This document shows positions 1 through 21,254 of a stretch of DNA of 56,729 nt, one piece after another. Position 1 is the first letter of the stretch. Every line of letters starts with the position of its first letter. The stretch comes from a virus. Its lineage: Duplodnaviria > Caudoviricetes. The notes under the pieces are model-generated. The model was not told the DNA's origin. It did no database searches and was given only the letters and a program-made list of their open reading frames with translations. The stretch covers positions 1 through 56,729 of the IMG/VR virus record IMGVR_UViG_3300031885_000016. One strand, written 5' to 3'. Position numbers and translations under genes: made by a program.

Positions 1-63
1 CGGAAGTCTTGATCGCCAATGGTTTTGGTTACGACGCCTAGTTTAGTTGTACATTAGGCGTTT

Positions 64-136
64 GACCTCGTAGCTCAGTCGGTAGAGCAACGGACTTTTA
101 ATCCGTGGGTCGTGAGTTCAAGTCTCACCGGGGTCA
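64..136 (+). tRNA. trnK: tRNA-Lys(UUU), no encoded CCA
   Basis: Full cloverleaf: acceptor GACCTCG/CGGGGTC+A, D arm GCTC/GAGC, anticodon arm ACGGA-CTTTTAA-TCCGT, T arm GTGAG-TTCAAGT-CTCAC. Confidence 0.95.
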
Positions 137-150
137 CTTAGGAGAAAACA

Positions 151-300
151 ATGAGTTTCTTTACATATTGCGAAAAGGTTTCTGGTTTTCTGGGGATTAA
201 GTTGGTGCTGGACAACATTCATGTTATCCATCGCAACTGGGCGCAGAACAAAACTGTTGGGGAGACTGCTGAGGCACTTCGCACTAAGAACAAAGTTTAG
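151..300 (+). CDS. Hypothetical 49-aa protein (paralog of 3668-3835)
   Basis: AGGAG RBS and ATG; stop is the TAG inside the motif. Paralog differs mostly at synonymous sites. Confidence 0.8.
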   Translation: MSFFTYCEKVSGFLGIKLVLDNIHVIHRNWAQNKTVGETAEALRTKNKV

Positions 301-319
301 TTGTACATTGGAGGGCAGG

Positions 320-541
320 ATGAGCAACTACTTCTTGAAACTTTGGGTGACTAGTGATCTTACTTATCAAGTCGCCAATCTTGAAACGGCTGAGACAGCC
401 GAATTTACTGACATTGAAAAGGTGTTAGAATTTTGTGGCGTGGCATTGAACCGATTTAAGTCGGTGGGTTGGGATGGTTACAGGATGGTTCAAGAAAAGA
501 TCGGGGAGAATAGCTGGTGGGTGTTGCCTTATCTTGGTTAG
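320..541 (+). CDS. Hypothetical cassette protein
   Basis: GGAGG RBS directly after motif; stop overlaps next motif. Confidence 0.75.
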   Translation: MSNYFLKLWVTSDLTYQVANLETAETAEFTDIEKVLEFCGVALNRFKSVGWDGYRMVQEKIGENSWWVLPYLG

Positions 542-566
542 TTTAGTTGTACATTGGAGGTATACC

Positions 567-824
567 ATGAGCATTAAAGTTCAAAACATTCCGACGTTGT
601 ATAAGCCACGGGGTGCGGTGTCATTGCCAGACAATCGAGATTGGACGAATCGTTTTGAGATTCGATCTGAGACATCTGATCGGATTTATATTATCGCCCA
701 GCACATTAACCATCGGCACTGGGGATGTTCCTGCCCGGCATGGAAGATTCGACGATCTTGCAAGCATTTGAAAACAGTGGGTTTGCCTACTGGGGAAGTT
801 CCTTATGAAGTCAATCTTAAATAA
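567..824 (+). CDS. SWIM zinc-finger protein
   Basis: WGCSCPAWKIRRSCKHL fits CxCx(n)CxH; GGAGG RBS. Confidence 0.8.
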   Translation: MSIKVQNIPTLYKPRGAVSLPDNRDWTNRFEIRSETSDRIYIIAQHINHRHWGCSCPAWKIRRSCKHLKTVGLPTGEVPYEVNLK

Positions 825-942
825 GATTTTCAATCTGGATGCTGATCCACAAGATTTGAATCTTCAATTCATGTTGGCGATGGCAATATGCATCCTGACC
901 CCTATGGGGATACTGTTTTATTTTTTTGGATAGGGGGCCAAT

Positions 943-1122
943 ATGACTAATGAAGAACTGCTTAGAGCGATTCGAGAAAACAGAGAGAAGCTAGAGCTTC
1001 TTGTGCAGGCAATGGAACGACATAAGAAACGCCGGTGGTGGAATCAGTTGGTTCAATACCTATCCATATTGCTTGGAATTATTGTTGGTCAATTGGCGTT
1101 CAAGTTCTGGATGGCTAGTTAA
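943..1122 (+). CDS. Small protein with C-terminal TM helix (59 aa)
   Basis: MTNEELLRAI...SILLGIIVGQLAFKFWMAS; stop TAA inside motif copy 1118. Confidence 0.7.
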   Translation: MTNEELLRAIRENREKLELLVQAMERHKKRRWWNQLVQYLSILLGIIVGQLAFKFWMAS

Positions 1123-1141
1123 GTTGTACATTGGAGCATTC

Positions 1142-1456
1142 ATGGAAACCAAAAAGAAGAAACGTGGATTCTTGGATGGCTATAAGAAGTATGATACTTC
1201 TAATGGGTTTGGGAATCGTCAAGAGTGGATGAATGCTTTTTATGCTCGGCTTGGATTTGAGCAGGCCCTTGAGGTATTGGGGGAGGATGATCCTCTGGTA
1301 TTGTTTGGTTTGAAAGCTGATGCGACGTGGGCGGATGTATCTGCTAGATGGCGGGAGTTGGCTGTGAAGCATCATCCTGATAAGGGTGGCGATCCTGTTG
1401 TGTTTAAGAAATACGGTGCGGCATTTGAGGTATTGGAAAGGCGGTATGGCAAATGA
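1142..1456 (+). CDS. J-domain (DnaJ-like) protein
   Basis: WRELAVKHHPDKGGDP contains the HPD J-domain signature; GGAG RBS after motif. Confidence 0.85.
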   Translation: METKKKKRGFLDGYKKYDTSNGFGNRQEWMNAFYARLGFEQALEVLGEDDPLVLFGLKADATWADVSARWRELAVKHHPDKGGDPVVFKKYGAAFEVLERRYGK

Positions 1457-1761
1457 TTAAAGCCAAGATTCATTCTGACGATTATGTGTTTGAATATGAA
1501 TTTGACGGCACACCTTGGTTCAAAGAGGCCAGCTTAGAGGATTTGCATCGGTTGTATGCTGAGGGCTGGTGTAGTTGCATTGAAGCCGATCAAGTGGCAA
1601 TTGAGGCCAGTAATGGTCCTATGACCGAAGAAACCGAGAATATCAAATTCCTTATTGATTACTGCCAGCGTAAAGGCGAGGGATTTGAGGTTGAGATTGA
1701 TGAGTTATCGGTTTTGGGTTGGCTTAAGTCTAACCGTCCTGATGTCTTGCTAGAAGTTTAG
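1453..1761 (+). CDS. Acidic hypothetical protein
   Basis: ATGA overlap with the J-domain gene; ends EV-stop in motif. Confidence 0.75.
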   Translation: MIKAKIHSDDYVFEYEFDGTPWFKEASLEDLHRLYAEGWCSCIEADQVAIEASNGPMTEETENIKFLIDYCQRKGEGFEVEIDELSVLGWLKSNRPDVLLEV

Positions 1762-1804
1762 TTGTACATTGTGTGATTGTCTCAAATCAAACAAGGAGAA
1801 AATC

Positions 1805-2221
1805 ATGAGCTATGACAACGATCATCGGGTGCGGGCTGGGCGTAGAACTAAGCGATTGGAAGTCCAAGGCAACCAGTTAGTTGGTTGGGTTACTTCAGAC
1901 GATGAGGATGAGGTTCTTGTCGAATTTCCTTTGAAGTATGAGGCATGTCCGACTTGTCAAGGTCGTGGGAAGCATACCAATCCATCTATTGACAGTCATG
2001 GGTTATCTGCTGAGGATTTTGCGGAAGATCCAGATTTTCTCCAAGATTATTTCAGCGGTGTGTATGACGTAGCTTGTTATGAGTGTGGTGGTCGAACTAC
2101 GGTGGCTGTTGTGGATGAGGCTCGTGCCAATCCAGAACAATTGGCTTTGTGGCACGCTCAAGAGCAATGGGATCGGGAGTATGAGGCCGAATGTGCGGCT
2201 GAGCGTCGTTTCGGGTATTAG
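1805..2221 (+). CDS. Zn-finger protein (DnaJ-type CxxCxGxG)
   Basis: CPTCQGRG and CYECGG; AAGGAG RBS. Confidence 0.75.
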   Translation: MSYDNDHRVRAGRRTKRLEVQGNQLVGWVTSDDEDEVLVEFPLKYEACPTCQGRGKHTNPSIDSHGLSAEDFAEDPDFLQDYFSGVYDVACYECGGRTTVAVVDEARANPEQLALWHAQEQWDREYEAECAAERRFGY

Positions 2222-2259
2222 TTTAGTTGTACATTGGGGAGTCATAAGGGAGAACAAAA

Positions 2260-2978: not shown

Positions 2979-3017
2979 GAAGTTTAGTTGTACATTGTTG
3001 GATCAAGGAGACTAAAC

Positions 3018-3389: not shown

Positions 3390-3546
3390 TCCGATTTCAA
3401 AAAAGCAGATTGAACAATTGCGAGAGCAAGTGAAGTTGCAGGCGGCTTATATTCGGTTTCTGGAGCAAGGATTGTCTGCTGCTCAAGATAAAGAGTTTAA
3501 TCGCAAGGTCGAAGCTGGAGAGCTTGATTACGCTAAGGGCTGCTAG
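3379..3546 (+). CDS. Small coiled-coil protein
   Basis: GGAGG RBS; stop overlaps motif 3546. Confidence 0.65.
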   Translation: MKIDPISKKQIEQLREQVKLQAAYIRFLEQGLSAAQDKEFNRKVEAGELDYAKGC

Positions 3547-3560
3547 TTTAGTTGTACACT

Positions 3561-3654
3561 GACCTCGTAGCTCAGTTGGTAGAGCAACGGACTTCCGCTG
3601 TTGAAACAGCATGAATTAATCCGTGGGTCGTGAGTTCAAGTCTCACCGGGGTCA
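3561..3654 (+). tRNA. tRNA-Lys-derived gene with 21-nt insertion in the anticodon loop (intron-containing, decoy or pseudo-tRNA)
   Basis: Identical to 64-136 except one D-loop base and the insert CCGCTGTTGAAACAGCATGAA (3595-3615) between U34 and U35. Confidence 0.8.
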
Positions 3655-3667
3655 CTAGGAGAAAACA

Positions 3668-3835: not shown

Positions 3836-4017
3836 AAGACGCTTTAATTATGGGTGGTGCAGTTCTTGGTGTGCTGTGCCTGATTGCCTTAGTGGTATCA
3901 GTGGTTATTGCGATCTTTCCTTTCTTGGTTGCAATTGCTGGTGTCGTTATCATATGGAGAATTGTCCTTTGTGTGATAAGTGGCACGCCGTTTTTTACTG
4001 GGAAGTTGCCGTGGTAG
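3832..4017 (+). CDS. Small membrane protein
   Basis: Highly hydrophobic, ATGA overlap, stop overlaps motif. Confidence 0.75.
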   Translation: MKDALIMGGAVLGVLCLIALVVSVVIAIFPFLVAIAGVVIIWRIVLCVISGTPFFTGKLPW

Positions 4018-4071
4018 TTTAGTTGTACATTGGTGGTTTGTTCTGAACGAGTTTAACTAAGGGAGAATTGA

Positions 4072-4391: not shown

Positions 4392-4658
4392 ATGATTAGC
4401 GTAGTGTTTCGGGTGACGTTGCAGGGTAGTTATGTAATGACTAAGACGATGACCGTTCCTGTTGTCCCCCAGAAGGATGATGATGTGGTTGTGGAGAATC
4501 AGTGGTTTGTGGTTAAAAACAATCGTTTTCTAATGGAACGATCTCAAGCTTATGTGGTAGTGGTGGTCGAGATTCTACGGGAGCAGAATCAAACTAAGCT
4601 TGTGTTGGAGGACAATGGTTGGGTACGAGAAGATACGTTGGAACCTGATGATGTTTAG
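4392..4658 (+). CDS. Hypothetical protein
   Basis: GGGGAG RBS; ends DV-stop in motif. Confidence 0.7.
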   Translation: MISVVFRVTLQGSYVMTKTMTVPVVPQKDDDVVVENQWFVVKNNRFLMERSQAYVVVVVEILREQNQTKLVLEDNGWVREDTLEPDDV

Positions 4659-4699
4659 TTGTACATTCGGGAGATGTAAAACAAAGGGAGAAACAAAGT

Positions 4700-5119
4700 A
4701 TGGGAATGGGTTATGCTGCTACGCACGGTTGGATTTTGACATCTGCGGATCTCAAAAAGATATGTCCTGATGAGTTTGCGGCGGTTGAAGCTGCGTTGGA
4801 GTTGATCGAATCTGATGAAGATGGGCCATATACTCTTGCTCGATATACACAAGCCATTACTAATGGTGAGGTTATCACAGGAGTTATCGACGAAGCGATT
4901 ACTGCTTTAGCTAAGGCGTTTACCGAAAAGACCAAGGTGGGGGACAGCAAGTTGCAGATTTATCTCGGCTATTACGATGCTGATAGCGGCGATATGTATG
5001 ATGAAATTGAGAATGGGGAATACTGGGAGATTGGCGGCATGGAGGCATTGACTCCAGCCGGTGTTAAACTGAAAGAGATTAGTGATGTGGCTCATCAAGC
5101 ATGGGTTCATCTTGGATAG
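4700..5119 (+). CDS. Acidic hypothetical protein
   Basis: GGGAG RBS; stop overlaps motif. Confidence 0.8.
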   Translation: MGMGYAATHGWILTSADLKKICPDEFAAVEAALELIESDEDGPYTLARYTQAITNGEVITGVIDEAITALAKAFTEKTKVGDSKLQIYLGYYDADSGDMYDEIENGEYWEIGGMEALTPAGVKLKEISDVAHQAWVHLG

Positions 5120-5133
5120 TTAAGTTGTACATT

Positions 5134-5570
5134 GGTGGGTGTTGAAACAATTGTCGGCTGACCCTTACGCTTAGGGTCCATTTGATGTCGGTGTCCCAAA
5201 CCTGTGCCACAAGCTATGGGGAGGGAGCAACATCCGTTTAATCGAGCGACAAGCCCGTAATGACCTGAGCGGTCAGAGGGATTTCGATTCACTGGAGTTG
5301 GTGTCCTATTTCGTATTTCATGGATATTGAATAGGAGCAACCCGGTTTTGTTACTTGTCCGACAACAATAACTAGTCTGAGCGATGACGATAAAAGCTTG
5401 CCGTATGGGATTACGTAAAGCCCCCCTAGAACTTGGGTCAATAATCCGCTGGTCATCGTAAGACCACTAAGGCATTGTCCTGCCGGTACAGTCAAGGCAA
5501 ATAGGGCCAAAGTAAGTGAAAGCTTGTAACAGGGAGCCGAAGCAATCGCTAGGCTCCCTGACTTTGTTTT
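5134..5570 (+). ncRNA. Candidate large structured non-coding RNA occupying its own cassette
   Basis: No credible + strand ORF. Nested helices: 5151-57/5359-65, 5160-65/5173-78, 5248-53/5354-59, 5261-65/5271-75, 5304-10/5330-36, 5382-88/5452-58, 5408-13/5442-47. Terminal hairpin 5530-38/5552-60 plus T-rich tail. Confidence 0.65.
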
Positions 5571-5606
5571 ATGACTTATAAAGTTTATTTGTACATTAGG
5601 TTGGAT

Positions 5607-5876
5607 ATGAAGCCGAATAAAATGAAAATTGCTGGCGGGGAATGGATCAAGCTACCCGACTATCCGATGGGTGGCAGACCACTTAAGCCCCGTTGCTCTA
5701 AATGCAATCGTGAATGTGAAGCTCGTTTGCATCGTATGTGGTTGTGTGCTAATTGCCCGACTACTAAAGAACAGCGGGAAAATGCCAAGCCAAAGAAAAG
5801 CAATTCGGCGGCGTTGGCGATGTTGTATGCAGCGGCAGCAATCGGTATGCCGTATATCAAGGTTGACAAAGTTTAG
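5607..5876 (+). CDS. Small Zn-ribbon protein
   Basis: CSKC...CANC; ends KV-stop in motif. Confidence 0.65.
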   Translation: MKPNKMKIAGGEWIKLPDYPMGGRPLKPRCSKCNRECEARLHRMWLCANCPTTKEQRENAKPKKSNSAALAMLYAAAAIGMPYIKVDKV

Positions 5877-5897
5877 TTGTACATTTGGGAGAATGTT

Positions 5898-6236
5898 ATG
5901 AGCATGGGATGGCAGACTACTGAGGATGATGTGATGACGGTTCTATCCGCTCACAATATCAAGGTCACTAAAGATCGGCTAAAAGAGATCTATGAGGGAC
6001 TTGATTTGGATGCGATTGAGGATGGTGTATATTATTACACCAGCATCGACGCCCAGACCGATAGCATGTTGTGTGACATTGAAGATCAGTTGATGGAACA
6101 ATTCATCATTGTCGGCAAAGAAAAACAGTATGACGAAGCCGATGAGGATGAATTCCTTGATGAAGATGAAGATGACGAAGATGACGAAGATGACGAAGAT
6201 GATGAGCATGATTTGAATATGTCCAGCATGTGGTAG
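5898..6236 (+). CDS. Very acidic protein with D/E tract
   Basis: GGGAG RBS; tail DEDEDDEDDEDDEDDE encoded by a GAAGATGAC repeat. Confidence 0.8.
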   Translation: MSMGWQTTEDDVMTVLSAHNIKVTKDRLKEIYEGLDLDAIEDGVYYYTSIDAQTDSMLCDIEDQLMEQFIIVGKEKQYDEADEDEFLDEDEDDEDDEDDEDDEHDLNMSSMW

Positions 6237-6259
6237 TTAAGTTGTACACTGGAGGATAC

Positions 6260-6559
6260 ATGAAACCATTTACTGTGCCGACAATGAAAGTCAAAGTTCT
6301 GATGCTTGCATTTGGCGATCCTGGTCAGGTGCGAGAGGTTGAGGTTCCTGTTGAGTCTGAGAGCGTATTGGATGAGGTTTTCCGATATGGACAAAACGAC
6401 TTTCAGCCGCAGAGATGTCCTAGTGTGAGCAAAGGAGATGTGATCGAATACAACGGTCATCATTTGGTTGCCAGCTTTGGATTCAAGGAGTTATCTGAGG
6501 AGCAGTTGCAGGAATATACTGCAATGGATAGACGAGATCGTTACTTCTATGAAGTTTAG
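6260..6559 (+). CDS. YodL-like domain protein
   Basis: PSVSKGDVIEYNG...VASFGFKEL resembles the YodL motif (SxSxxDV...VDxxGF). Confidence 0.6.
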   Translation: MKPFTVPTMKVKVLMLAFGDPGQVREVEVPVESESVLDEVFRYGQNDFQPQRCPSVSKGDVIEYNGHHLVASFGFKELSEEQLQEYTAMDRRDRYFYEV

Positions 6560-6607
6560 TTGTACATTGGGGTGCTGTCACTAAACTTTTCACAAAGGGG
6601 AGAACGA

Positions 6608-7201: not shown

Positions 7202-7214
7202 GTCTCCCCAGGAT

Positions 7215-7266: not shown

Positions 7267-7324
7267 GGAAGTTAATTTGTACATTATGTTGGCATCGGTA
7301 ATTCAATCATTCAGGGAGCCAATC

Positions 7325-7729
7325 ATGTATCGCTATCGTTGTGAAGGTCATACGACTTGGAACGCTCGCAAGAATTTCAATCGTGTAGGTGTTCTGGGTA
7401 AGATCAAGCGAGTGAAGGGTTATCGTTTCACTTCATGCCGCAAGAACAACAGCAATCAACCTGTTCAGCATGAATACGTGTTGGTGGTGGGGGAGAATGG
7501 TTCTTGTCGTTTCAGTGGTTTGTGTTGGGGTTATGGTGGTGAAGGTCCGAGCGGGCTGTGTGAGTTGCTCAAGATGTTGGGCATCGAGGGCAACATGGCA
7601 GCGAACATTGCCTATGACTCGTACCGTGGTCAAGCTGACGGGACTGATTGGGAACTTAAGTTCCGTGAAGGGCAATTCAGCTATATGAATGGGAATTGGA
7701 CAAGCTATCACGAATGGCAAGCCGCCTAG
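7325..7729 (+). CDS. Hypothetical protein ending in -QAA
   Basis: Contains WGYGGEGPSGL; GGGAG RBS; stop overlaps motif. Confidence 0.8.
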   Translation: MYRYRCEGHTTWNARKNFNRVGVLGKIKRVKGYRFTSCRKNNSNQPVQHEYVLVVGENGSCRFSGLCWGYGGEGPSGLCELLKMLGIEGNMAANIAYDSYRGQADGTDWELKFREGQFSYMNGNWTSYHEWQAA

Positions 7730-7781
7730 TTTAGTTGTACATTTGGGAGAGTGTAACAACAACATTCAACGGGAGAATAGA

Positions 7782-8177: not shown

Positions 8178-8231
8178 GTAGTTTAGTTGTACATTGGGAG
8201 AGTGTAACAACAATTCAATAAGGGAGAAATC

Positions 8232-8486
8232 ATGGGACGTTCGACTACTCCGACCTATCGTTTGCGGATTGATGGCACAAGTCTGATCTGGCGTGGCAAA
8301 GCTACGCAGAAACGGCTTGAGGAATACGTCATGCAATATGGCAAGTCATTGGAGCTTGGTGGTGCCAATGAGCATATCTCCAAGAGCTTAGGATATATTC
8401 CTTATCCGAATAAGGCTATCTTGATTCGTCAGTCTACCAATGAAGTCGTCGCAACTTGGCAGGCGGCTATGTTTCAAGTGTGGTAG
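8232..8486 (+). CDS. Hypothetical protein
   Basis: GGGAG RBS; stop overlaps motif. Confidence 0.75.
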   Translation: MGRSTTPTYRLRIDGTSLIWRGKATQKRLEEYVMQYGKSLELGGANEHISKSLGYIPYPNKAILIRQSTNEVVATWQAAMFQVW

Positions 8487-8508
8487 TTTAGTTGTACATT
8501 GAGGGATT

Positions 8509-8700: not shown

Positions 8701-8903
8701 AATACACTTTCCAAGTTGAAGTGACGTTCGATAACGAACAAGTGACCGATGGTCAGGCTCGTGAGATTGTGGATGGCATCATTGCCCGTGGCATGGAAGA
8801 TTTACGTTCTCAATTGGATGACGATGATCTGTGTCAAGAGGATTTTGATGACAATGATCCGTTTAAACTCTTTGAGCAGATTGAGGACATCAAGCTAGTT
8901 TAG
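8697..8903 (+). CDS. Small highly acidic protein
   Basis: LDDDDLCQEDFDDND; ends LV-stop in motif. Confidence 0.75.
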   Translation: MKYTFQVEVTFDNEQVTDGQAREIVDGIIARGMEDLRSQLDDDDLCQEDFDDNDPFKLFEQIEDIKLV

Positions 8904-8921
8904 TTGTACATTAGGAGAAAC

Positions 8922-12351: not shown

Positions 12352-12390
12352 TTTGTACATTGCTGAGCTAAGTTAATTTGTACATTGCTG
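12339..12390 (+). repeat. Perfect 25-bp tandem duplication containing the motif
   Basis: TGAGCTAAGTTAATTTGTACATTGC x2. Confidence 0.95.
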
Positions 12391-12421: not shown

Positions 12422-12583
12422 ATGAGCAGAATACTTACTGTGCCACAAAGGCATCAGCTTGCCATTGCTCGCAAGACTCTGACTTATTCTGATGTGGGGG
12501 CCAAGATTATGGGTGGGCCAACCAAAGAAGAAGCAAGGGCCATCATCCTCAAACTGACTGGCGAAGTCGTCAAAGAAGTTTAG
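12422..12583 (+). CDS. Small hypothetical protein (53 aa)
   Basis: GGAG RBS; MSRILTVPQ...GGPTKEEARAII...KEV-stop in motif. Confidence 0.7.
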   Translation: MSRILTVPQRHQLAIARKTLTYSDVGAKIMGGPTKEEARAIILKLTGEVVKEV

Positions 12584-12641
12584 TTGTACATTGCTGGGAT
12601 ATATCCAACAATTCAAACCGGAGCAGTACATTGGAGCAAAT

Positions 12642-13055
12642 ATGGAACAAATCATTGTCGTCGTAATCATGAACAACGTGGTAAATGATTGCAAGTTGTT
12701 TGATGATGTGAAGCTGGCTGAGCAGGAGTTCATTGAAGCGGTTAAGCTGCGATTGTGGCGTGGCGATAATGTTAATGATATGGAATCATACCTTGAAGAT
12801 GGGTATTATCCATTCGAGGATGGATCGGTGTGTATTACGCACCCCCAACCTTGCAGCAAACGGCTAGTGCAATGCTCGTGGGAAACGTATTGTACGAAGG
12901 ATCGTGTTGTCCCTGTTGCCGATTACGATGAACGGGTGAAAGTTACATTGACAGCCAATACTACCGAACATTATTTAGACGGTGTTCTGGTGGCAAGAGC
13001 CAGTTATTACAATGGGGCTGAGCCCATCTATGAATTGGCTCAGTACCTAGTTTAG
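12642..13055 (+). CDS. Hypothetical protein
   Basis: GGAG RBS preceded by partial motif GTACATT; ends LV-stop in motif. Confidence 0.7.
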   Translation: MEQIIVVVIMNNVVNDCKLFDDVKLAEQEFIEAVKLRLWRGDNVNDMESYLEDGYYPFEDGSVCITHPQPCSKRLVQCSWETYCTKDRVVPVADYDERVKVTLTANTTEHYLDGVLVARASYYNGAEPIYELAQYLV

Positions 13056-13103
13056 TTGTACATTAGTGGGCTGTAACGGACAAACAACCTCCAAGGTGCA
13101 AAG

Positions 13104-13655
13104 ATGAAAACGATCACTGTCGAAGAATTGGCAAAGAAGCTGTACGATGAGAAGGGCACGACGTTTGCGACGATTCTGGCCTTCACCAAGCCCAACTTTG
13201 TTGGTGGGCAAAAATGCCCGATGATTCAACGGGGCGTCAAAAAGCTGGCTGTCGTCAACGTAATGATCGGAAACTGGTCATACGAAAACGCTGTCAACAA
13301 TCAACGGGAACGTGAACACGCCGATGAAAATGAAACGGTCGAACACTTCACCGCTCAAAGCCGCTCTTGGGGCGAACAACTCGCAACCGAAGTCGGCAAA
13401 CGGATCGGCCTGATTCAACATACGAAAGACGGCGAAGTTAAAACCTACCTGAAAACCAAAATTCAGAAGTCGCTTCGCCACTCTTACTATGACAACAACG
13501 GCCAGCACGTCAACCGTGAGGAAGCCGAACAACACATTCGACGAAACAAGCCATCGGTTCGCCAAGGTGTTGAGAAAGAGGTTTTTGAACGGGATTACGA
13601 ATTGAAAAACATTCGTGCTATCAGAATGCACGGCGAAGTTTACGTCATCGCCTAA
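13104..13655 (+). CDS. Hypothetical protein
   Basis: 183-aa ORF, AAGG RBS, followed by terminator hairpin at about 13659-13688. Confidence 0.85.
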   Translation: MKTITVEELAKKLYDEKGTTFATILAFTKPNFVGGQKCPMIQRGVKKLAVVNVMIGNWSYENAVNNQREREHADENETVEHFTAQSRSWGEQLATEVGKRIGLIQHTKDGEVKTYLKTKIQKSLRHSYYDNNGQHVNREEAEQHIRRNKPSVRQGVEKEVFERDYELKNIRAIRMHGEVYVIA

Positions 13656-13753
13656 GATTCTCCCCCCGAAAGGGGGGAGCTTTCTTTTCATAATCTTGCA
13701 AAGTTAATTTGTACATTAGTGGGTTGTAACATCAACAACCAAGGGGAAAAATC

Positions 13754-14005
13754 ATGAGTGTTGAATTTGAGCCGTCTGCATTGAAGTTGCAACTCCAAGC
13801 CGCTCTAGGATTGAGCGATGATGATTTTGGTTATCATGCGACGGATTTATACGTGCTGGACAAGCCCGGCGTAATGGACTGGTTGAAAAAGAACTACGGT
13901 AGTTTCCGCAGCATCAAGCGGTTCATCGGCAATGCTGGACACCCGACTTTTGGGGGCAAACCTGCCCTGGATATTCCCTTCGCTGGAATTTGGAAGAAGG
14001 TTTAG
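13754..14005 (+). CDS. Hypothetical protein
   Basis: YHATDLYV...LDIPFA; ends KV-stop in motif. Confidence 0.75.
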   Translation: MSVEFEPSALKLQLQAALGLSDDDFGYHATDLYVLDKPGVMDWLKKNYGSFRSIKRFIGNAGHPTFGGKPALDIPFAGIWKKV

Positions 14006-14047
14006 TTGTACATTGTTGTGACGTAAACCAAAAATTCCAAGGAGAGA

Positions 14048-14254
14048 ATGATGAAAGTTTTTGTTGTGTGCCAAGGTGAGAGCGGAGAGGGAGCGGGGCC
14101 TATTGCGGTGTTCAGCACAAAACGCAAGGCAAAGGCATTCATCAAACGAGATCATCCTGAATTTAAAGATCCTGTTGAAGGATTGGACAATACATGGACC
14201 AGCGATAAATTCGGCGTAGACCTCATCAGCATTCAAGAGTTCGAAGTAGTTTAG
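14048..14254 (+). CDS. Small hypothetical phage protein
   Basis: MKVFVV...IAVFSTKRKAKAF pattern common in small phage proteins; AAGGAG RBS. Confidence 0.75.
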   Translation: MMKVFVVCQGESGEGAGPIAVFSTKRKAKAFIKRDHPEFKDPVEGLDNTWTSDKFGVDLISIQEFEVV

Positions 14255-14274
14255 TTGTACATAGGGGACAACAG

Positions 14275-14397
14275 ATGGTAATGATTTTTGTTTGTGTGGC
14301 TCTTGCTTATGCTGGAGCCCCTAATTGGGTGTGGTGGTTGGCAGTTGGCTATACGGTACTTTGCTTTCTGGCTCAATCGCAAGAAAGTGGAGTTTAG
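14275..14397 (+). CDS. 40-aa membrane peptide
   Basis: MVMIFVCVALAYAGAPNWVWWLAVGYTVLCFLAQSQESGV; fills the cassette, stop inside motif. Confidence 0.6.
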   Translation: MVMIFVCVALAYAGAPNWVWWLAVGYTVLCFLAQSQESGV

Positions 14398-14417
14398 TTG
14401 TACATTTAGGAGACATC

Positions 14418-14543: not shown

Positions 14544-14612
14544 AGAAAAAATAGGTGCAAGTTTAGTTGTACATTACCTCAGTGTAACCAACAACAACTC
14601 AGAGGAAACGTG

Positions 14613-14945
14613 ATGAAAGCCTACATCTATCAAGCTGACATCTACTGCGAAGATTGTATGAAGGATATGCCGCACCCCGAAGATCAATCGTCCTACGATA
14701 GCGACGAATATCCTAAAGGGCCGTTTGCTGATGGTGGGGGAAGTGCCGATAGCCCACAACATTGCGGCAATCATGGGGATTGTGTCAACGCAATTACTCT
14801 TAGCGACGGCACTAAGATTGGCGTATGGCTGGAGAATCCCTTGACCAATGAAGGGGTCGAATACGTCCGAGATCATATCGCAGAAGAACCAGACAACGAA
14901 GTTGTGAAATTGTGGGCTGAGTGGTACGCCGATGACCTAGTTTAG
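14613..14945 (+). CDS. Acidic Cys-containing hypothetical protein
   Basis: YQADIYCEDC...DSPQHC...LENPLT; GAGG RBS; LV-stop in motif. Confidence 0.8.
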   Translation: MKAYIYQADIYCEDCMKDMPHPEDQSSYDSDEYPKGPFADGGGSADSPQHCGNHGDCVNAITLSDGTKIGVWLENPLTNEGVEYVRDHIAEEPDNEVVKLWAEWYADDLV

Positions 14946-14963
14946 TTGTACATTAGAGGCTAT

Positions 14964-15128: not shown

Positions 15129-15310
15129 AAATCATTCGATATGCAATTGTGAGAATTGAGATTGAAGCTGTGGACGTGGGGACTGACCCTGACGAAGCGG
15201 CACAACGGGTTATCGACAATTGCGAATATGCTTTCGTCTATGACGATGGATTAGTCAAAGTTGTGGACACTGAGATTTTGGATTGCAGTGAGGATCACCC
15301 GCTAGTTTAG
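15125..15310 (+). CDS. Small acidic protein
   Basis: Ends LV-stop in motif. Confidence 0.65.
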   Translation: MKIIRYAIVRIEIEAVDVGTDPDEAAQRVIDNCEYAFVYDDGLVKVVDTEILDCSEDHPLV

Positions 15311-15360
15311 TTGTACATTACTAGGCTGTAACAGCAACAACACCACAAGAGAGAAAAGTC

Positions 15361-15699: not shown

Positions 15700-15809
15700 C
15701 AAGTTAAAGAGGGAGGGTGCCCCGAAAGCCCCTCTTCTCTTTTTAAATTCATACAAAGTTAATTTGTACATTAGGTGGGTGTAACCGCCAATCATCTCAA
15801 AGGTGCAAA

Positions 15810-16013
15810 ATGATTATCCGAATCAGTGAGGAAGAGTATGCGGAACTGTCTGAGGAAAATGGTGGCTATTGCCTCGCTTGTGGCGAAGTCGCTTATGGGG
15901 TCGAACCAGACGCAAGGAAGTACACTTGTGAGTCATGTGATTCACCCAGCGTTTACGGCATCGAAGAATTGCTAATCATGGGCAAAATCGAGTTCGGAGA
16001 ATCCGACGACTAG
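15810..16013 (+). CDS. Zn-ribbon protein
   Basis: CLACGE...EPDARKYTCESC; stop overlaps motif. Confidence 0.8.
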   Translation: MIIRISEEEYAELSEENGGYCLACGEVAYGVEPDARKYTCESCDSPSVYGIEELLIMGKIEFGESDD

Positions 16014-16070
16014 TTTAGTTGTACATTTGTGGCATGTGTTGATAACAAACCTCAAGCGGAGTAAAGTGAC

Positions 16071-16409
16071 ATGGCTAAGGACAAGATTGCTCACGTTCGT
16101 TCGGCTAAGGCCAAGACCCCCAAGCAACTCGCCAAGAAGGCCCTGAATGAAGCTCGTGCCGCCGAACGGTTCAAGCGTCATCAAGAGCTTGACAAGCAAC
16201 GGCTCGCTCAGAAGCAAGAGCGTGCCCAACAAGCGGCTCAGGCGAATCGTGATCGGTTCATCATTCAATCGGCCTTGAACGGCCCCCATGCTGTCATCCT
16301 CCTCCGATGGCTCAAGGGACGGGAAGCCACCATCGACCGAGTTCAACGATTCTGCGATGATCGCCCCAAGTTCGTGCGGCCAAACGTCGCAGCCATCATC
16401 GCAGCCTAA
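16071..16409 (+). CDS. Basic helical protein ending -IIAA
   Basis: GGAG RBS; followed by terminator. Confidence 0.75.
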   Translation: MAKDKIAHVRSAKAKTPKQLAKKALNEARAAERFKRHQELDKQRLAQKQERAQQAAQANRDRFIIQSALNGPHAVILLRWLKGREATIDRVQRFCDDRPKFVRPNVAAIIAA

Positions 16410-16412
16410 TGA

Positions 16413-16437
16413 AAAGGCCCCTTCGGGGGCCTTTTCT
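16413..16437 (+). terminator. Intrinsic terminator
   Basis: AAAAGGCCCC-TTCG-GGGGCCTTTT. Confidence 0.85.
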
Positions 16438-16507
16438 ATTTAAAATAATACAAAGTTAATTTGTACATTAGGTGAGTGTAACCACAACACACAAGAGGAC
16501 AAGAGCC

Positions 16508-16687
16508 ATGCTAATTGATTGTGATCGTGAGACTTACGGCAAGTTCATCCGTAGCTTGCAGAATGCTACCGATAAGCCGACAAGCTGCACAACCTTCAGC
16601 GTCATGCAAACCAGTGTCAATGGCAAACTAGTGGCTCAGGCAATCTACAACCATGCTATGCCACCTCGATACCAAATCGAAGCCTAG
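16508..16687 (+). CDS. Small hypothetical protein
   Basis: GAGG RBS; stop overlaps motif. Confidence 0.65.
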   Translation: MLIDCDRETYGKFIRSLQNATDKPTSCTTFSVMQTSVNGKLVAQAIYNHAMPPRYQIEA

Positions 16688-16738
16688 TTTAGTTGTACAT
16701 TAGTGGGATGTAACAACCAAACCCCAAGAGACAAGACA

Positions 16739-17023: not shown

Positions 17024-17108
17024 TGGGGGGGCGAAAGCCCCTTTATAAATGTGCAAAGTTAATTTGTACATTAGGTGAATGTAACCAACTCCAACCCCCG
17101 AGACAACA

Positions 17109-17303
17109 ATGAACAGATTTCTCAAAAATTATCAGGTTAGACCGGGTCGCACTGTGCAAGTGGATCATATGGTCCAAACATTCACTATTGAGATTCGGTC
17201 GCTCAGCGGTGCCGATCAAGCCACCATCAAACGGCTCCTGCAAGCCAAATACGAAGTGCTTGATGTGCAACCAGCCGGATACCGAGTGATCGCCGAAGTT
17301 TAG
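17109..17303 (+). CDS. Small hypothetical protein
   Basis: Ends EV-stop in motif. Confidence 0.7.
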   Translation: MNRFLKNYQVRPGRTVQVDHMVQTFTIEIRSLSGADQATIKRLLQAKYEVLDVQPAGYRVIAEV

Positions 17304-17350
17304 TTGTACATTAGGTGAATGTAACCACCAATTCAAACGGAGAGAAAGCC

Positions 17351-17698
17351 ATGAATGTTCTGCGTGATAAGTTTCCCCACCTGATTGACCTGACCCCCGA
17401 TGTGGACACAAAGGGATTCACTTACTTGGCTACAACGCCAGTCATCAAGCAACCGGGCACTTTGCCCTACCGAATTGTCCTGGTCTGTAATGGCGACCAA
17501 TTCATCGTCTACAACCAGTATTTCAACAAGTATCACGTCGATCCGCTGTCGGGCTATCTGGAAACCGCCAAGCCGTCATTCTCCGATGGCAACTACTTCG
17601 GAAATCAGCACTTACATGCGGCCTTGAAGTGCTTCGGCAATCGAGTCGCCAAGGATGCGGTCCATATCGAGAGCATCTATCGGAAAGAAACAGTGTAG
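17351..17698 (+). CDS. Hypothetical protein
   Basis: GGAG RBS; stop overlaps motif. Confidence 0.75.
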   Translation: MNVLRDKFPHLIDLTPDVDTKGFTYLATTPVIKQPGTLPYRIVLVCNGDQFIVYNQYFNKYHVDPLSGYLETAKPSFSDGNYFGNQHLHAALKCFGNRVAKDAVHIESIYRKETV

Positions 17699-17832
17699 TT
17701 TAGTTGTACACTGAGTAGTCGCCAAGGGAATATAAACTTGAACAGTGGCTCTAACATAAGGAGAACTATCATGTGACCCCTAGACTGTCATCACAAGCTT
17801 ATAATTTTTGATCCTCTTTTTTGGAAAGAACT

Positions 17833-18012: not shown

Positions 18013-18104
18013 TTGCTTGGCGGTGAAAATGGGCCACCAATCATAGGGGTGGCGGCGGGAACTGCCAAAGTGCCTTAGTTTACTTGTACATTTAGGAGAA
18101 GCAG

Positions 18105-18299
18105 ATGAAACTCAGTCACCTGACCGTGTATTTCGACATTCAATGGCATATGCGTGATGGACGGGGCCATTGTGTCGATGTTGATCTGCCTGACAATTCA
18201 GACGGCACTCGTGCTGGTGGCAACGATGGCACTCGTTTTTCGTCACCGGCTGAAGCCGGAAGATTTGTCGCTGATTGGCTTGTCGAACAGATTTCATAG
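18105..18299 (+). CDS. Small hypothetical protein
   Basis: AGGAG RBS right after motif; stop overlaps next motif. Confidence 0.7.
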   Translation: MKLSHLTVYFDIQWHMRDGRGHCVDVDLPDNSDGTRAGGNDGTRFSSPAEAGRFVADWLVEQIS

Positions 18300-18348
18300 T
18301 TTAGTTGTACATTAGGTGAATGTAACAACCTCACACCGGAGCCAAACA

Positions 18349-18546
18349 ATGGCCAAGAACAAGCTCAACAATGATGATCGTCGCCAATGGATCGACAACG
18401 ATGAGGGCCTTTACAACTGGTATCGGTCCAGTCGCCTCAGCATGACCAAATTCATCAAGGAAAACAAAGAAGAACTTGATGCGGCGATCAATCGGGTTCT
18501 CAACGCCCCGCCCCCCGAAAAGACTTGGCGAGACTACGTTAGGTAG
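18349..18546 (+). CDS. Small hypothetical protein
   Basis: GGAG RBS; RRQWIDNDEGLYNW. Confidence 0.75.
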   Translation: MAKNKLNNDDRRQWIDNDEGLYNWYRSSRLSMTKFIKENKEELDAAINRVLNAPPPEKTWRDYVR

Positions 18547-18608
18547 TGGAGAGAGCCCCTTCGGGGGCTCTTTTCTTTTTAACTTGTGCAAAGTTAATTT
18601 GTACATTA
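18544..18608 (+). repeat. Terminator+motif module, identical copy at 20060-20124
   Basis: TAGTGGAGAGAGCCCCTTCGGGGGCTC-(T-rich)-AACTTGTGCAAAGTTAATTTGTACATTA. A related module pair lies at about 19081-19140 and 19476-19533. Confidence 0.9.
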
Positions 18609-18644
18609 CTTGGATGTAATGACAACACTCACCGGAGCCAAACA

Positions 18645-19076
18645 ATGCTTCACTTCTCAACCGCTTCCGATCTCGCTCAAATTGGTTGGACTGAGGATGG
18701 CGAACCTGATGTGATCGAAGAGTTTTATGTGGTTGCCAGCGACGAACACGGCAACCAATGGCGAAGCCCAACTGTCCGACACGATTGGACCAATTCATTC
18801 CGATTCTGCAAGGATTATGTTGCCAAACAGATTGAAAAGGTCCGCTTTGCTCTTTACCGATGGGAACCAATTCAAGTTTTCATCCTTGGAAGCATCGCAG
18901 AACGACATGGCTTTGAAAACGAATGCGAACTGCTTCATCGGGAATCGGTCACGAAATTGGATGTGACCACTTGGCAACCGTGGTTCCCACAATACGGCTC
19001 AGACGCCTACGTTAGTAGTGGACAAGAGGCAAAGTATCTGGCTGCCGAACGTGCTGGCGTCCCTTACTACTGCTAA
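18645..19076 (+). CDS. Hypothetical protein
   Basis: Leader CACCGGAGCCAAACAATG shared with the 18349 gene; C-terminal PQYGSDAY. Confidence 0.75.
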   Translation: MLHFSTASDLAQIGWTEDGEPDVIEEFYVVASDEHGNQWRSPTVRHDWTNSFRFCKDYVAKQIEKVRFALYRWEPIQVFILGSIAERHGFENECELLHRESVTKLDVTTWQPWFPQYGSDAYVSSGQEAKYLAAERAGVPYYC

Positions 19077-19170
19077 CACAAAGCCCCTTCGGGGGCTTTT
19101 ACTCTTATTCCTTGCGAAGTTAATTTGTACATTAGTTGGGTGTAACCACAACCTTAACTGGAGAGAAACG

Positions 19171-19470
19171 ATGAACCGTGTTGAAGCTGCTATCGCCAAG
19201 GCCAAGATCGCAATCGAAAACAGTGGTGCCGATCAAGCCAAGCTTGACAAAAACCACAAAGCTTTGGACATGCCGTTCGATGAGTATTGCCGGTTTCAAA
19301 CGATGAAGTCGGCAGCAATGGGCACCATGCTCAACACCGACGAAGCACAGTCGATCTACAACTACTTGGGCAACACCCCCGAGCAATTCAATCGGCAGCC
19401 GCTGGAAGTCAAGATCGTGCTTACGAAGATCTTCGCCGAACTACTGGAACGTCGCATCAAAGCGGCCTAG
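19171..19470 (+). CDS. Hypothetical protein ending -IKAA
   Basis: GGAG RBS; followed by terminator. Confidence 0.8.
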   Translation: MNRVEAAIAKAKIAIENSGADQAKLDKNHKALDMPFDEYCRFQTMKSAAMGTMLNTDEAQSIYNYLGNTPEQFNRQPLEVKIVLTKIFAELLERRIKAA

Positions 19471-19545
19471 AGAGAAGCCCCTTCGGGGGCTTTTACTTTA
19501 TTCCTTGCAAAGTTAATTTGTACATTAGTTGGGTAAGGAGCAACC

Positions 19546-19677
19546 ATGAAGAAAACCGAACACGCTGCCAAGGCCCACAATTGCTTGGGCTATCACAAAC
19601 ATCTTCGTAAGTTCGGCAAAGCACTGGCCCATCGGGCTGTCCGCAATGCACTTCGACGATTACTCAAGCAAGTTTAG
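19546..19677 (+). CDS. 43-aa basic peptide
   Basis: AAGGAG RBS; MKKTEHAAKAHNCLGYHKHLRKFGK...LKQV-stop in motif. Confidence 0.7.
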   Translation: MKKTEHAAKAHNCLGYHKHLRKFGKALAHRAVRNALRRLLKQV

Positions 19678-19732
19678 TTGTACATTACTTGGATATAACC
19701 ACAACAACACCCCTTACCTAGAGAGATTCGAC

Positions 19733-20062
19733 ATGAAGTTTTTCATCCAGTTAGTTGCCAGCGAACTGAAGTTTGAATGTGTGGACCAACACGTTTTCGA
19801 CAATCGCAATTTCGCTCTTGCGGATGACGGCGGACCACGTTACACCAAGAATTGGTTCTCGTCTATCCCCGGCAGCGTCGATATTCATTGCGACAATCTG
19901 TCACCTGGCTTGATTGCTGGTATCAATCGCATGGTCGGCAACCCAACCAGTCATCAAGGACTTGGCACGTTCAGCGAGCCCGATAGTGTGGGCTTTCGCC
20001 GTGGTCGTGGCGAATACCTTTACAAGCTGACCGATCAAACGAAGTGGAAGCGAGCGGCCTAG
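19733..20062 (+). CDS. Hypothetical protein ending -KRAA
   Basis: ORF between motif and terminator. Confidence 0.75.
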   Translation: MKFFIQLVASELKFECVDQHVFDNRNFALADDGGPRYTKNWFSSIPGSVDIHCDNLSPGLIAGINRMVGNPTSHQGLGTFSEPDSVGFRRGRGEYLYKLTDQTKWKRAA

Positions 20063-20159
20063 TGGAGAGAGCCCCTTCGGGGGCTCTTTTCTTTTTAACT
20101 TGTGCAAAGTTAATTTGTACATTAGGTGAGTGTAACCACAACACTCAAGGAACAAAGCC

Positions 20160-20402
20160 ATGTGTCAAATCAATCTGGGTTCGCCAATCGGAAGTGAGAA
20201 GGTTCGGGGCGGGTTCCAACCACACTGGCGTACCGTGTTCGTCTACAAGTGCAAGGCTGGTCATGTGGTCAAGGTGCGAGCCAACTCCTACCGTGGCAAA
20301 ACGGCAGTGCCAGGGGTGGGGGCCATCATGTGTCCCACTTGTGAGTTTAATGCCAAGTTCGATGCCATGATGTTTCAACCAACCCACGAACTTGCCTGCT
20401 AG
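20160..20402 (+). CDS. Small Zn-binding protein
   Basis: CKAGH...CPTC; AAGG RBS; stop overlaps motif. Confidence 0.7.
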   Translation: MCQINLGSPIGSEKVRGGFQPHWRTVFVYKCKAGHVVKVRANSYRGKTAVPGVGAIMCPTCEFNAKFDAMMFQPTHELAC

Positions 20403-20449
20403 TTAAGTTGTACATTAGAAGCATGTAACAACTAACAACGGAGCGAACC

Positions 20450-20599
20450 ATGAAGATCAAGCTCAACTGCAAAGCACAATGGGAAGTGGGACGAGGCCAC
20501 ATGGCACACCGCAGTGGCACAGGCACCCACAGTGATCGTCGCACTAAGCGACTCAACACAAGAGCCAGCCGCAACCGCAAAGCAATGGGGGAACAGTGA
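20450..20599 (+). CDS. 49-aa basic peptide
   Basis: GGAG RBS; ...RSGTGTHSDRRTKRLNTRASRNRKA. Confidence 0.65.
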   Translation: MKIKLNCKAQWEVGRGHMAHRSGTGTHSDRRTKRLNTRASRNRKAMGEQ

Positions 20600-20794
20600 T
20601 GAAGTGGGACAGTTCTGCTTGTGTCGCAAGCTGCAAGCACCAAGGCCCGAACGTATCAGTGTGGATCGTTGGCGTGCCATGCACAAGCAAGCGGCAGCCG
20701 TGGCCTATGCCAGACATGAAGAACGTTGTAGTTAAGTTGTACATTAGTGGTATGTAAGGACAACAACTCACCCTAACGAAACGAAAGAGATACC

Positions 20795-20935
20795 ATGAAG
20801 ATTCATCGCTCGGAAGCCGAAATGATTGCTGCCATCGAACAAGAGCAACTGATTGAAGATGCTCACAACGGCCACGATGAAGCGATTGAGGACATCCTCG
20901 AACAACTCGAACTTGAACAGCGACAAGCGGCCTAG
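20795..20935 (+). CDS. 46-aa acidic peptide ending -RQAA
   Basis: MKIHRSEAEMIAAIEQEQLIED...EQRQAA; last coding cassette. Confidence 0.65.
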   Translation: MKIHRSEAEMIAAIEQEQLIEDAHNGHDEAIEDILEQLELEQRQAA

Positions 20936-21254
20936 TGTGGTGTGGTTGGACTAGGGTGGCGGGGGCTAGTGGTTGGCCCCCGCCACTCCCCATTGGGGGC
21001 CTAGTTTAGTTGTACATTAGAGGGACGTGTCGCAAAATTAACAATAAAACAATTGTTTTGAAAAACATTTGACATGACCACCCTACCCCCTACCTACCAG
21101 GAGCTATGACCCCCTTTTTCTTTATTACACCTTACTTCGATTATTATTTCTGTGTTACAGAATTAAAAACTTTTAATTATGGGTTTTTCATCTAATAGCT
21201 GAAAAGTTTTTATAGAGATGGGGGGGGTTTAAAAAAAAATTACTATATTAGTGC

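Follow-up and report, generated by a model that had tools for sequence, protein, structure and literature searches.

The 56,729-nucleotide (nt) virus record IMGVR_UViG_3300031885_000016 (Duplodnaviria; Caudoviricetes), analysed here at its full length and called the window, is an entire IMG/VR record that is rated 11% complete and that carries, in its first 21 kb, an array built around 55 copies of one short motif. We put at roughly three in four the probability that this array is a hyperplastic block of about 55 genes in which nearly every gene or gene pair has its own predicted 17-nt phage-specific promoter, with the modules that contain these promoters doubling as crossover points.

The motif, GTTWAKTTGTACAYT, has 53 exact matches in the window, all on the + strand and all within 41-21018, as compared to a mean of 0.00 in 100 shuffles. 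With up to two mismatches the count rises to 55 (1.25 ± 1.07 expected by chance), with no match on the − strand and none in the 35.7 kb of the window beyond 21018; mean spacing between copies is 388 bp. The two inexact copies, at 14249 (last base A) and 18078 (GTTTAC), each have a single mismatch. The 55 same-orientation copies reported in an earlier reading of this DNA made from the sequence only are confirmed. While that sequence-only reading placed an abrupt start of conservation at GTT, alignment of the 55 copies shows conservation to begin 2 nt 5' of GTT and to continue for 17 bases in total, giving the full motif (T/A)A-GTT(T/A)A(G/T)TTGTACA(T/C)T; the base preceding GTT is, as had been noted, mostly A (53 of 55 copies, with T at 4653 and G at 14000), and the base before it is T or A in 54 of 55. 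A purine follows the motif directly in 48 of 55 copies, and many copies continue into a looser leader, TGTAAC..CAACA, and then a Shine-Dalgarno (SD) site.

Genes in the array were called with a simple gene caller, which identified 55 small + strand genes with an SD site; all distances from motif to start codon rest on these called starts. The called start lies 8-13 nt 3' of the motif in 10 copies, a short-leader class with GGAG from the first or second base 3' of the motif, and 19-61 nt 3' of the motif in 31 copies, with the remaining 14 of 55 copies heading a tRNA, a unit free of open reading frames (ORFs) or an uncalled gene. At the other end, the called stop codon of the upstream gene falls inside the motif region in 27 of 55 copies, as TAG ending on the G of GTT (n = 13), TAG at motif bases 4-6 (n = 11), or TAA at motif bases 3-5 (n = 3). 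Distances to the downstream start thus form two narrow classes, whereas the distance to the upstream stop is either 0 or widely variable, which argues for a signal that belongs to gene starts rather than gene ends. A sequence-specific signal at which the transcribing polymerase terminates or pauses, comparable to the short termination signal found after early genes of poxviruses, would account for the stop codons held by the motif and for the tRNA 3' ends that abut it in several relatives; we nevertheless regard this explanation as highly improbable, given that such a signal would be redundant right after a strong intrinsic terminator, where at least 11 copies are found, that tandem copies 25 nt apart (12347 and 12372) precede a single gene, and that the first copy in the units of relatives precedes genes and does not follow them.

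With regard to terminators, GC-rich hairpins followed by T-tracts (+ strand) are located just 5' of at least 11 copies (7271, 10949, 11787, 13703, 15758, 16455, 17058, 18593, 19119, 19512, and 20109), and the array holds 30 terminator-like sites as compared to 17.0 ± 4.1 in shuffles. A unit behind a strong terminator needs a promoter of its own and the motif is the sole conserved element at that place, which is why we read the motif as a promoter; gene 11811 represents the clearest case, with only the motif between a 16-bp-stem terminator and the gene. A strong upstream fold (≤ −15.7 kcal/mol) is found at 9 of 13 GTTAAT copies versus 3 of 33 GTTTAG copies (Fisher p = 1e-4), and about one fifth of all copies carry a stem-loop, which is absent from most. 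Terminator, motif, and leader also recur together in the array as a family of 88-nt modules; those at 18544 and 20060, previously described as identical, are real modules that share 93% identity over 88 nt.

Two motif copies head tRNA-like genes, with gaps of 8 nt and 0 nt, and another heads an ORF-free unit, placements that argue against a translational operator. The 55 genes, these two tRNA-like genes, and at least one ORF-free unit (5119-5583) agree with the earlier description of units that hold small genes, a tRNA, or a non-coding RNA. Duplication of a unit with a tRNA and a gene (64-300 and 3561-3835), also described earlier, was found again at 91-100% identity, with 63-97, 98-138, and 139-271 recurring at 3560-3788 with 97%, 100%, and 91% identity, respectively. 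The second tRNA copy (3561-3655; Rfam tRNA score of 61.5 bits) has a 21-nt insert in its anticodon loop that can fold into a small hairpin, and could be an intron-bearing, retargeted, or disabled tRNA. The ORF-free unit at 5134-5582 is a candidate structured non-coding RNA; its fold is more stable than that of shuffled sequences (z = −2.3; equalled by 1 of 100 shuffles), Rfam matches were absent at E up to 0.1, and part of it (5333-5464) is present with 76.7% identity in the metagenome contig L232. An Rfam scan of the array found the two tRNAs and nothing else.

The RNA genes also bear on the possibility that a long polycistronic RNA is cut at each motif by a phage or host endoribonuclease, which would free monocistronic mRNAs and tRNAs. 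The tRNA 5' ends lie 0-8 nt past the motif, tRNA 3' ends abut the next motif in the relatives L241, L258, L289, and LR756511.1, the motif stands at the exact border of every unit, and the window encodes enzymes that act on RNA ends (a polynucleotide kinase and a protein of the CCA-adding/poly(A) polymerase type). Processing of this kind appears unlikely, however, as at least 11 strong intrinsic terminators stand directly 5' of motifs with no other conserved element after them, so that the units behind them need their own promoter, as a master promoter is not apparent upstream and sigma-70-like sites show no enrichment in the array (24 versus 29.2 ± 5.3 in shuffles), and as conserved RNA structure is lacking in the motif itself.

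Returning to the motif as a promoter, the SD site directly after the motif and the tRNAs, which in both the window and the related record G002 begin 0-8 nt 3' of GTAC (0 and 4 nt in G002), place the predicted transcription start at or just past GTAC. The simplest candidate would be the A of GTAC, which fits every case. Transcripts would have a short leader at their 5' end, either with an immediate SD site or of the CA-rich TGTAAC..CAACA type, and would extend to the next intrinsic terminator or, if there is none, through the next promoter, while the 5' end of each promoter would serve as stop codon of the preceding gene, saving space. The approximately 55 near-identical predicted promoter or terminator-promoter modules are also the sole sequence common to unrelated cassettes and diverged relatives and could hence act as crossover points for ordinary recombination, which would explain gain, loss, and reordering of cassettes among relatives. 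The features of the array are as follows (coordinates and strand first).

41..21018 (+): array of 55 motif copies, each heading a predicted small transcription unit; GC content 44-49% versus 35-42% in the remainder of the window
41..55 (+): motif copy, GTTTAG type; tRNA-Lys begins 8 nt 3'
64..137 (+): tRNA-Lys(UUU)
295..309 (+): motif copy, GTTTAG; contains the TAG stop of gene 151-300
541..555 (+): motif copy, GTTTAG; SD GGAGG immediately 3', ATG at 11 nt
1118..1132 (+): motif copy, GTTAAG
1756..1770 (+): motif copy, GTTTAG; 99.94% identity with contig L258 stops at 1791, 21 nt 3' of this copy
2221..2235 (+): motif copy, GTTTAG
2982..2996 (+): motif copy, GTTTAG
3546..3560 (+): motif copy, GTTTAG (..ACACT); tRNA-like gene from the very next base
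3561..3655 (+): second tRNA-Lys gene copy, with the 21-nt insert in the anticodon loop (ARAGORN: Arg-CCG)
4017..4031 (+): motif copy, GTTTAG
4653..4667 (+): motif copy, GTTTAG, T at −1
5119..5133 (+): motif copy, GTTAAG, heading the ORF-free unit
5134..5582 (+): ORF-free unit of about 450 nt, with hairpin and T-tract at its 3' end; candidate non-coding RNA
5583..5597 (+): motif copy, GTTTAT
5871..5885 (+): motif copy, GTTTAG
6236..6250 (+): motif copy, GTTAAG
6554..6568 (+): motif copy, GTTTAG
7271..7285 (+): motif copy, GTTAAT, 3' of hairpin and T-tract
7729..7743 (+): motif copy, GTTTAG
8181..8195 (+): motif copy, GTTTAG
8486..8500 (+): motif copy, GTTTAG
8898..8912 (+): motif copy, GTTTAG
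9199..9213 (+): motif copy, GTTAAT
9704..9718 (+): motif copy, GTTTAG
10383..10397 (+): motif copy, GTTAAG
10709..10723 (+): motif copy, GTTTAG
10949..10963 (+): motif copy, GTTAAT, 3' of terminator 10898-10925
11125..11139 (+): motif copy, GTTAAG
11744..11801 (+): 16-bp-stem terminator (11744-11779), T-tract, and motif copy (11787-11801); SD GGAG at the next base, ATG 9 nt past the motif
12347..12386 (+): tandem pair of motif copies (12347 and 12372), GTTAAT type
12578..12592 (+): motif copy, GTTTAG
13050..13064 (+): motif copy, GTTTAG
13654..13741 (+): module of terminator, GTTAAT motif (13703-13717), and leader; repeat family D10
14000..14014 (+): motif copy, GTTTAG, G at −1
14249..14263 (+): motif copy with one mismatch (last base A)
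14392..14406 (+): motif copy, GTTTAG
14561..14575 (+): motif copy, GTTTAG
14940..14954 (+): motif copy, GTTTAG
15305..15319 (+): motif copy, GTTTAG
15758..15772 (+): motif copy, GTTAAT, 3' of hairpin and T-tract
16013..16027 (+): motif copy, GTTTAG
16406..16493 (+): module of terminator, GTTAAT motif (16455-16469), and leader; repeat family D10
16687..16701 (+): motif copy, GTTTAG
17058..17072 (+): motif copy, GTTAAT, 3' of hairpin
17298..17312 (+): motif copy, GTTTAG
17698..17712 (+): motif copy, GTTTAG (..ACACT)
18078..18092 (+): motif copy with one mismatch (GTTTAC)
18299..18313 (+): motif copy, GTTTAG
18544..18631 (+): module of terminator, GTTAAT motif (18593-18607), and leader; family D10, 93% identity with 20060-20147
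19070..19157 (+): module of terminator, GTTAAT motif (19119-19133), and leader
19473..19526 (+): terminator (19473-19494) and GTTAAT motif (19512-19526)
19672..19686 (+): motif copy, GTTTAG
20060..20147 (+): module of terminator, GTTAAT motif (20109-20123), and leader; family D10
20402..20416 (+): motif copy, GTTAAG
20731..20745 (+): motif copy, GTTAAG
21004..21018 (+): final motif copy; sequence is AT-rich beyond it and the array ends

Related phages carry comparable arrays with other versions of the motif. In IMG/VR, 284 relatives of the window's baseplate wedge protein were found, with identities of no more than 64%; some of them are on contigs of 225-340 kb rated 44-69% complete, values that imply genomes near 0.5 Mb. 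The closest GenBank phage (43% identity) is the uncultured 595-kb record LR756511.1. The window's own motif occurs at control level in five large related IMG/VR records (G001-G005), in a megablast comparison with 50,697 phage records the array matched through its tRNA alone, and the exact motif was found in 104 IMG/VR stretches, with one or two matches in each of the 80 listed, 9 single matches for a longer pattern, and no multi-copy viral contig. A further pattern, TGTACNNTAGTGGGTGT, had 1 match in G002-G005 and LR756511.1, and the arrays of G002, G003, and G005 surfaced by k-mer counting only. The versions found were as follows.

G001: TAGGTC(C/T)A(G/T)TGTACCCT, usually followed by AGTGGGTGTAAC; 60 + strand copies at 265,233-293,005, with 4 other TGTACCCT sites (64 in total) in 340 kb
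G002: ..TT(T/C)TGGTACGGT; 25 + strand copies at 168.3-184.3 kb, with 27 sites on both strands in the 100 kb examined
G003: G002 motif as its reverse complement, repeated 11 times within a single 20-kb piece
G005: ..TTTAATTGTATTTTT with a conserved leader; 23 copies at 48.7-74.5 kb
LR756511.1: ..TATAAAGCTGTACT(T/A)A, mostly 3' of T-rich tails; 30 + strand copies at 0.7-18.7 kb, with 36 sites in 595 kb

All versions have GTAC (GTAT in G005) at the same spot near the 3' end of the motif, in the forms ..TTGTACATT in the window, ..GTGTACCCT in G001, ..TGGTACGGT in G002, ..GCTGTACTTA in LR756511.1, and ..TTGTATTTT in G005, while the 9-10 bases upstream vary by lineage. A shared GTAC combined with a diverging upstream half would be expected if a promoter and the protein that reads it evolve together. 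Location is also shared, as the arrays of G001 and LR756511.1 (the latter assumed to be circular) lie about 10-15 kb or less from the same tail module as that of the window. GC content is clearly raised in the arrays of the window, G001, G005, and LR756511.1, with a slight rise in G002; for the window (1-21100 versus 21100-56729), G001 (260-290 kb), and LR756511.1 (1-20 kb), the array is 5-9 points above the rest of the genome. On the coding strand, the first 12 kb of the window are also markedly richer in G than in C (skew 0.2-0.3). No array was found in the three 20-kb pieces examined of G004 (225 kb), which is not evidence of absence; G004 (locus L381) does have two CRISPR-like arrays, at 8338-8920 and 13346-13750, with 10 and 7 repeats of about 28 nt and spacers of about 33 nt. 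LR756511.1 has a second variant, GCTGTACAA, on the other strand further along the genome, mostly a few bases 5' of ATG; between about 19 and 100 kb, where genes are mostly on the − strand, (C/A)AGCTGTACAA is found mostly 1-11 nt 5' of ATG, with no SD site in the cases read. This second variant points to a set of transcripts, made from promoters of the same family, that are leaderless or nearly so.

Comparisons among relatives also support considerable plasticity of the array. A scan of metagenome contigs identified several that carry many copies of the window-type motif, in which genes, named here by their window homologues, occur in the order 4700, 10419, 5898, 2760, 7286, and 7689 (L232), 17351, 8697, 12163, 1805, and 13104 (L236), or 3018, tRNA, 474, 1142, and 4072 (L241). 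The metagenome contig from which L236 and L289 come is 546 kb long and has the window-type motif as well. Blocks of nucleotide homology are bounded by motif copies (e.g., 7726-8170 and 13702-13998). Contig L258 is 99.94% identical to window positions 1-1791, a stretch that takes in the motif at 1756-1770 plus the next 21 nt of leader, and the identity stops just 5' of the SD site; past 1791, L258 has an unrelated gene followed by homologues of window genes at 32-89% amino-acid identity. Across lineages, homologues of the 51 array proteins are few, with 3 represented in G001 (all within the G001 array) and 2 in LR756511.1, while the adjoining tail module is syntenic.

The sequence-only reading had proposed a platform for capture and shuffling of genes, with breakpoints expected at the GTT. 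Its modular and plastic nature holds, as cassette order and content differ among relatives and blocks end at motifs; a dedicated system with breakpoints at GTT is not borne out, given that the only near-identical junction (window versus L258) falls at 1791/1792, 21 nt past the motif, albeit in a single case. A site-specific recombinase that uses the motif as its crossover site, as attC is used in integrons, would be consistent with the variable cassette order among contigs that share the motif, the near-complete turnover of array genes between lineages, the homologous blocks limited by motif copies, the fit of 7 of 55 copies to the integron core GTTRRRY, and some contigs of sequencing runs that join a later place back to an earlier one, although their sides are short and they may represent rearranged relatives. 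Several observations make such a system very unlikely. Tyrosine recombinases (PF00589) were found in 0 of 5 records (G001, G002, G004, LR756511.1, and the window, which covers about 11% of its genome) and in 14 of 14 control genomes, and no serine recombinase (PF00239) was above the cut-off in the five records, including the 595-kb LR756511.1. No attC-like hairpin or inverted partner core was detected, with 0 of 55 copies on the − strand at up to two mismatches and conservation limited to 17 nt plus leader. The sequence-only reading had likewise stated that this is not an attC array and that the window has no integrase. Start-codon spacing and placement after terminators point to a role in expression, and lineage-specific motifs with a GTAC core at a fixed offset from gene starts fit co-evolution with a transcription factor.

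A number of results weigh against our reading of the array as self-promoted genes with recombining modules. None of the runs that hold the stretch is recorded as RNA, and both promoter activity and start site are deduced from the DNA. No −35 partner region is conserved upstream of the motif in the 55-copy alignment, the motif fits no promoter class that could be named, and hairpins in the leaders, which would suit a 5' end, are weak (mean z −0.6; z < −1 in 12 of 28). Array-bearing records other than LR756511.1 are fragments, 33-69% complete. For the role in recombination, a motif at every gene boundary makes breakpoints at motifs inseparable from breakpoints at gene borders, and the single sharp junction lies 21 nt beyond the motif. 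Seven sediment sequencing runs hold the stretch or part of it, and contigs from 4 of these contain many alternative joints with one side at the motif; with short sides (21-47 nt) and 90% likeness, these joints may derive from relatives or from the repeat itself and give a weak hint that neighbours differ. Searches for a phage RNA polymerase, which the sequence-only reading had suggested together with the recombinase searches, were extended to relatives and were likewise negative: the T7-like enzyme (PF00940) was found in 0 of 6 related records, including the 595-kb LR756511.1, with 89% of the genome of the window unseen (T7's own gene was recovered with E = 1e-109), the beta' subunit (PF00623) had no match above the cut-off in 7 records, the beta subunit (PF00562) was found in 0 of 5, and the DxDGD signature identified no RNA polymerase-like long ORF in G001, the window, or LR756511.1, although very divergent beta and beta' subunits could escape both the Pfam and the DxDGD searches. 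A weak PF00623 match in G005 sits in a small tail-module protein and was dropped.

The lack of a −35 element counts at the same time against ordinary host promoters, i.e., promoters for the primary sigma factor of a host phylum with an unusual consensus. T4-type early regions use host-type promoters in a like architecture (PMC2839356). With the A of GTAC taken as +1, positions −12 to −7 read (T/A)AGTT(T/A), which keeps T-12, A-11, and T-7 of the −10 hexamer. Fifteen nearly invariant contiguous bases nevertheless far exceed what a host −10 element needs, the upstream halves of the motif in relatives clearly differ (TAGGTCCAG, TTATAAAGC, ..TTTCTGG), which would be unexpected unless hosts differ, and the motif is missing from the other 35.7 kb of the window; host promoters are thus quite unlikely to explain the array.

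If the motif is a phage-specific promoter, its reader is more likely a phage-encoded sigma-type factor that redirects the host RNA polymerase, and less likely an RNA polymerase that sequence searches do not recognise. Relatives encode small sigma-family proteins with regions 2 and 4 (165 and 180 amino acids) or region 2 alone (173 and 186 amino acids), which are at most candidates for this role. Ten large G001 proteins compared to Pfam were other enzymes or unknown, with no polymerase among them. Further G001 genes code for Ro60-like and PARP-like proteins, a class I tRNA synthetase, and the alpha subunit of DNA polymerase III. A bolder proposal, which we advance tentatively and with clearly less than even confidence, is that a clade of phages of about 0.5 Mb expresses an accessory block with an unrecognised polymerase or a new specificity factor, from a lineage-diverged 17-nt promoter with a GTAC core, which would make the array a self-expressing platform for capture and shuffling that works without a dedicated recombinase. 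If such transcription machinery exists, any gene dropped between two copies would be expressed at once.

Downstream of the array, the window encodes a DNA methylase, an 809-amino-acid protein, a RecD-like helicase, an enzyme of the CCA-adding/poly(A) polymerase type, a polynucleotide kinase, and a tail module (tape measure and baseplate genes). The helicase, kinase-like, and CCA-adding/poly(A) polymerase-type genes form a cluster of RNA/DNA enzymes at 28461-35148, between array and tail module. The 809-amino-acid protein (22108-24537), directly behind the array, had no Pfam or PHROG match; by eye, it has Walker-A-like/ATPase-like GGKT and DEAD-like motifs. Among 51 array proteins, 4 matched Pfam (DUF6876, DUF7336, J domain, and a borderline Roadblock) and 3 matched PHROGs families of unknown function, a gene content that is typical of accessory or early regions in phages. 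The array genes probably have host-takeover or counter-defence functions, and the array presumably marks about 55 genes as one expression class. Huge phages are known almost only from metagenomes and the programming of their expression is largely unknown; the array provides a concrete and testable handle on it, with a promoter-like signal repeated 55 times in one phage and lineage-specific versions in at least five related records, and the lineage-specific pattern around GTAC predicts a co-evolving specificity factor that could be found by covariation.

Among known systems, promoters of T7, T3, and SP6 consist of a contiguous element of about 17-23 bp that ends at the start site and is near-invariant within a genome. 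Compared to these (promoter features as generally known; the T7 record was the one examined), the window shares a contiguous element of about 17 nt with little variation within the genome, a conserved core (GTAC) with flanks that diverge between related phages, and, if the start site predicted from SD and tRNA positions is right, a purine-rich transcript start, often GGAG; it differs in the lack of a T7-like polymerase gene in the 6 related records and in a motif that is far denser per kb and confined to one genome region. The split beta and beta' genes of phiKZ-type jumbo phages also have no counterpart in the related records searched. Integron attC sites are imperfect inverted repeats of 55-140 nt that fold as hairpins, with crossover at G|TT of the core. 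While the array resembles integrons in its same-orientation small unrelated genes, its repeated site starting with GTT, and its variable content, no integrase was found in the five records searched, it has no attC inverted repeats or hairpins, its sharp junction is off G|TT, and its sites are predicted promoters before genes, whereas attC sites are recombination sites behind promoterless genes. In mimivirus, the 8-nt early promoter motif AAAATTGA precedes 45% of genes and marks one temporal class (PMC5294985). This short conserved motif in a giant virus shows the same one-gene, one-promoter layout, but in a eukaryotic virus with its own multisubunit polymerase, where the motif is genome-wide and no role in recombination is claimed.

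The comparison with the promoter-early/stem-loop (PeSL) regulatory cassettes of T4-type phages, which the sequence-only reading had also drawn, names the best known analogue. According to Arbiol et al. 2010 (PMC2839356) and Comeau et al. 2014 (PMC4122927), PeSLs are terminator/promoter composites that span the interval between the stop codon of one gene and the start codon of the next. A genome has about 50 of them (52 in phage phi1), and recombination between copies gives rise to indels, replacements, and mini-circles. Like them, the array has dozens of repeated intergenic modules in a hyperplastic ORFan-rich region (here 55 in 21 kb), laid out from upstream stop codon to downstream SD site and start, and has a shuffled order among relatives. 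By contrast, PeSL promoters have a bipartite sigma-70 consensus read by the host enzyme, while the window's element is a contiguous 17 nt, lacks a −35 region, and is lineage-specific; only about one fifth of copies in the window have a stem-loop; the window is denser (about 1 per 388 bp in one unbroken 21-kb run); and its phages form a clade of about 0.5 Mb that may not be T4-type. In full-text searches and in the accessible part of the huge-phage clade paper (PMC7162821), we found no description of arrays of this kind, with supplements, which possibly annotate LR756511.1, outside this search. What is new relative to the PeSL layout is a contiguous, non-sigma-70 predicted promoter that is lineage-specific around GTAC, occurs at very high density, and occurs in a widespread clade of about 0.5 Mb. 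Shuffling mediated by promoters and terminators, as described for T4-type phages, appears to operate here at a larger scale and through another type of promoter, in very large phages of a separate group.

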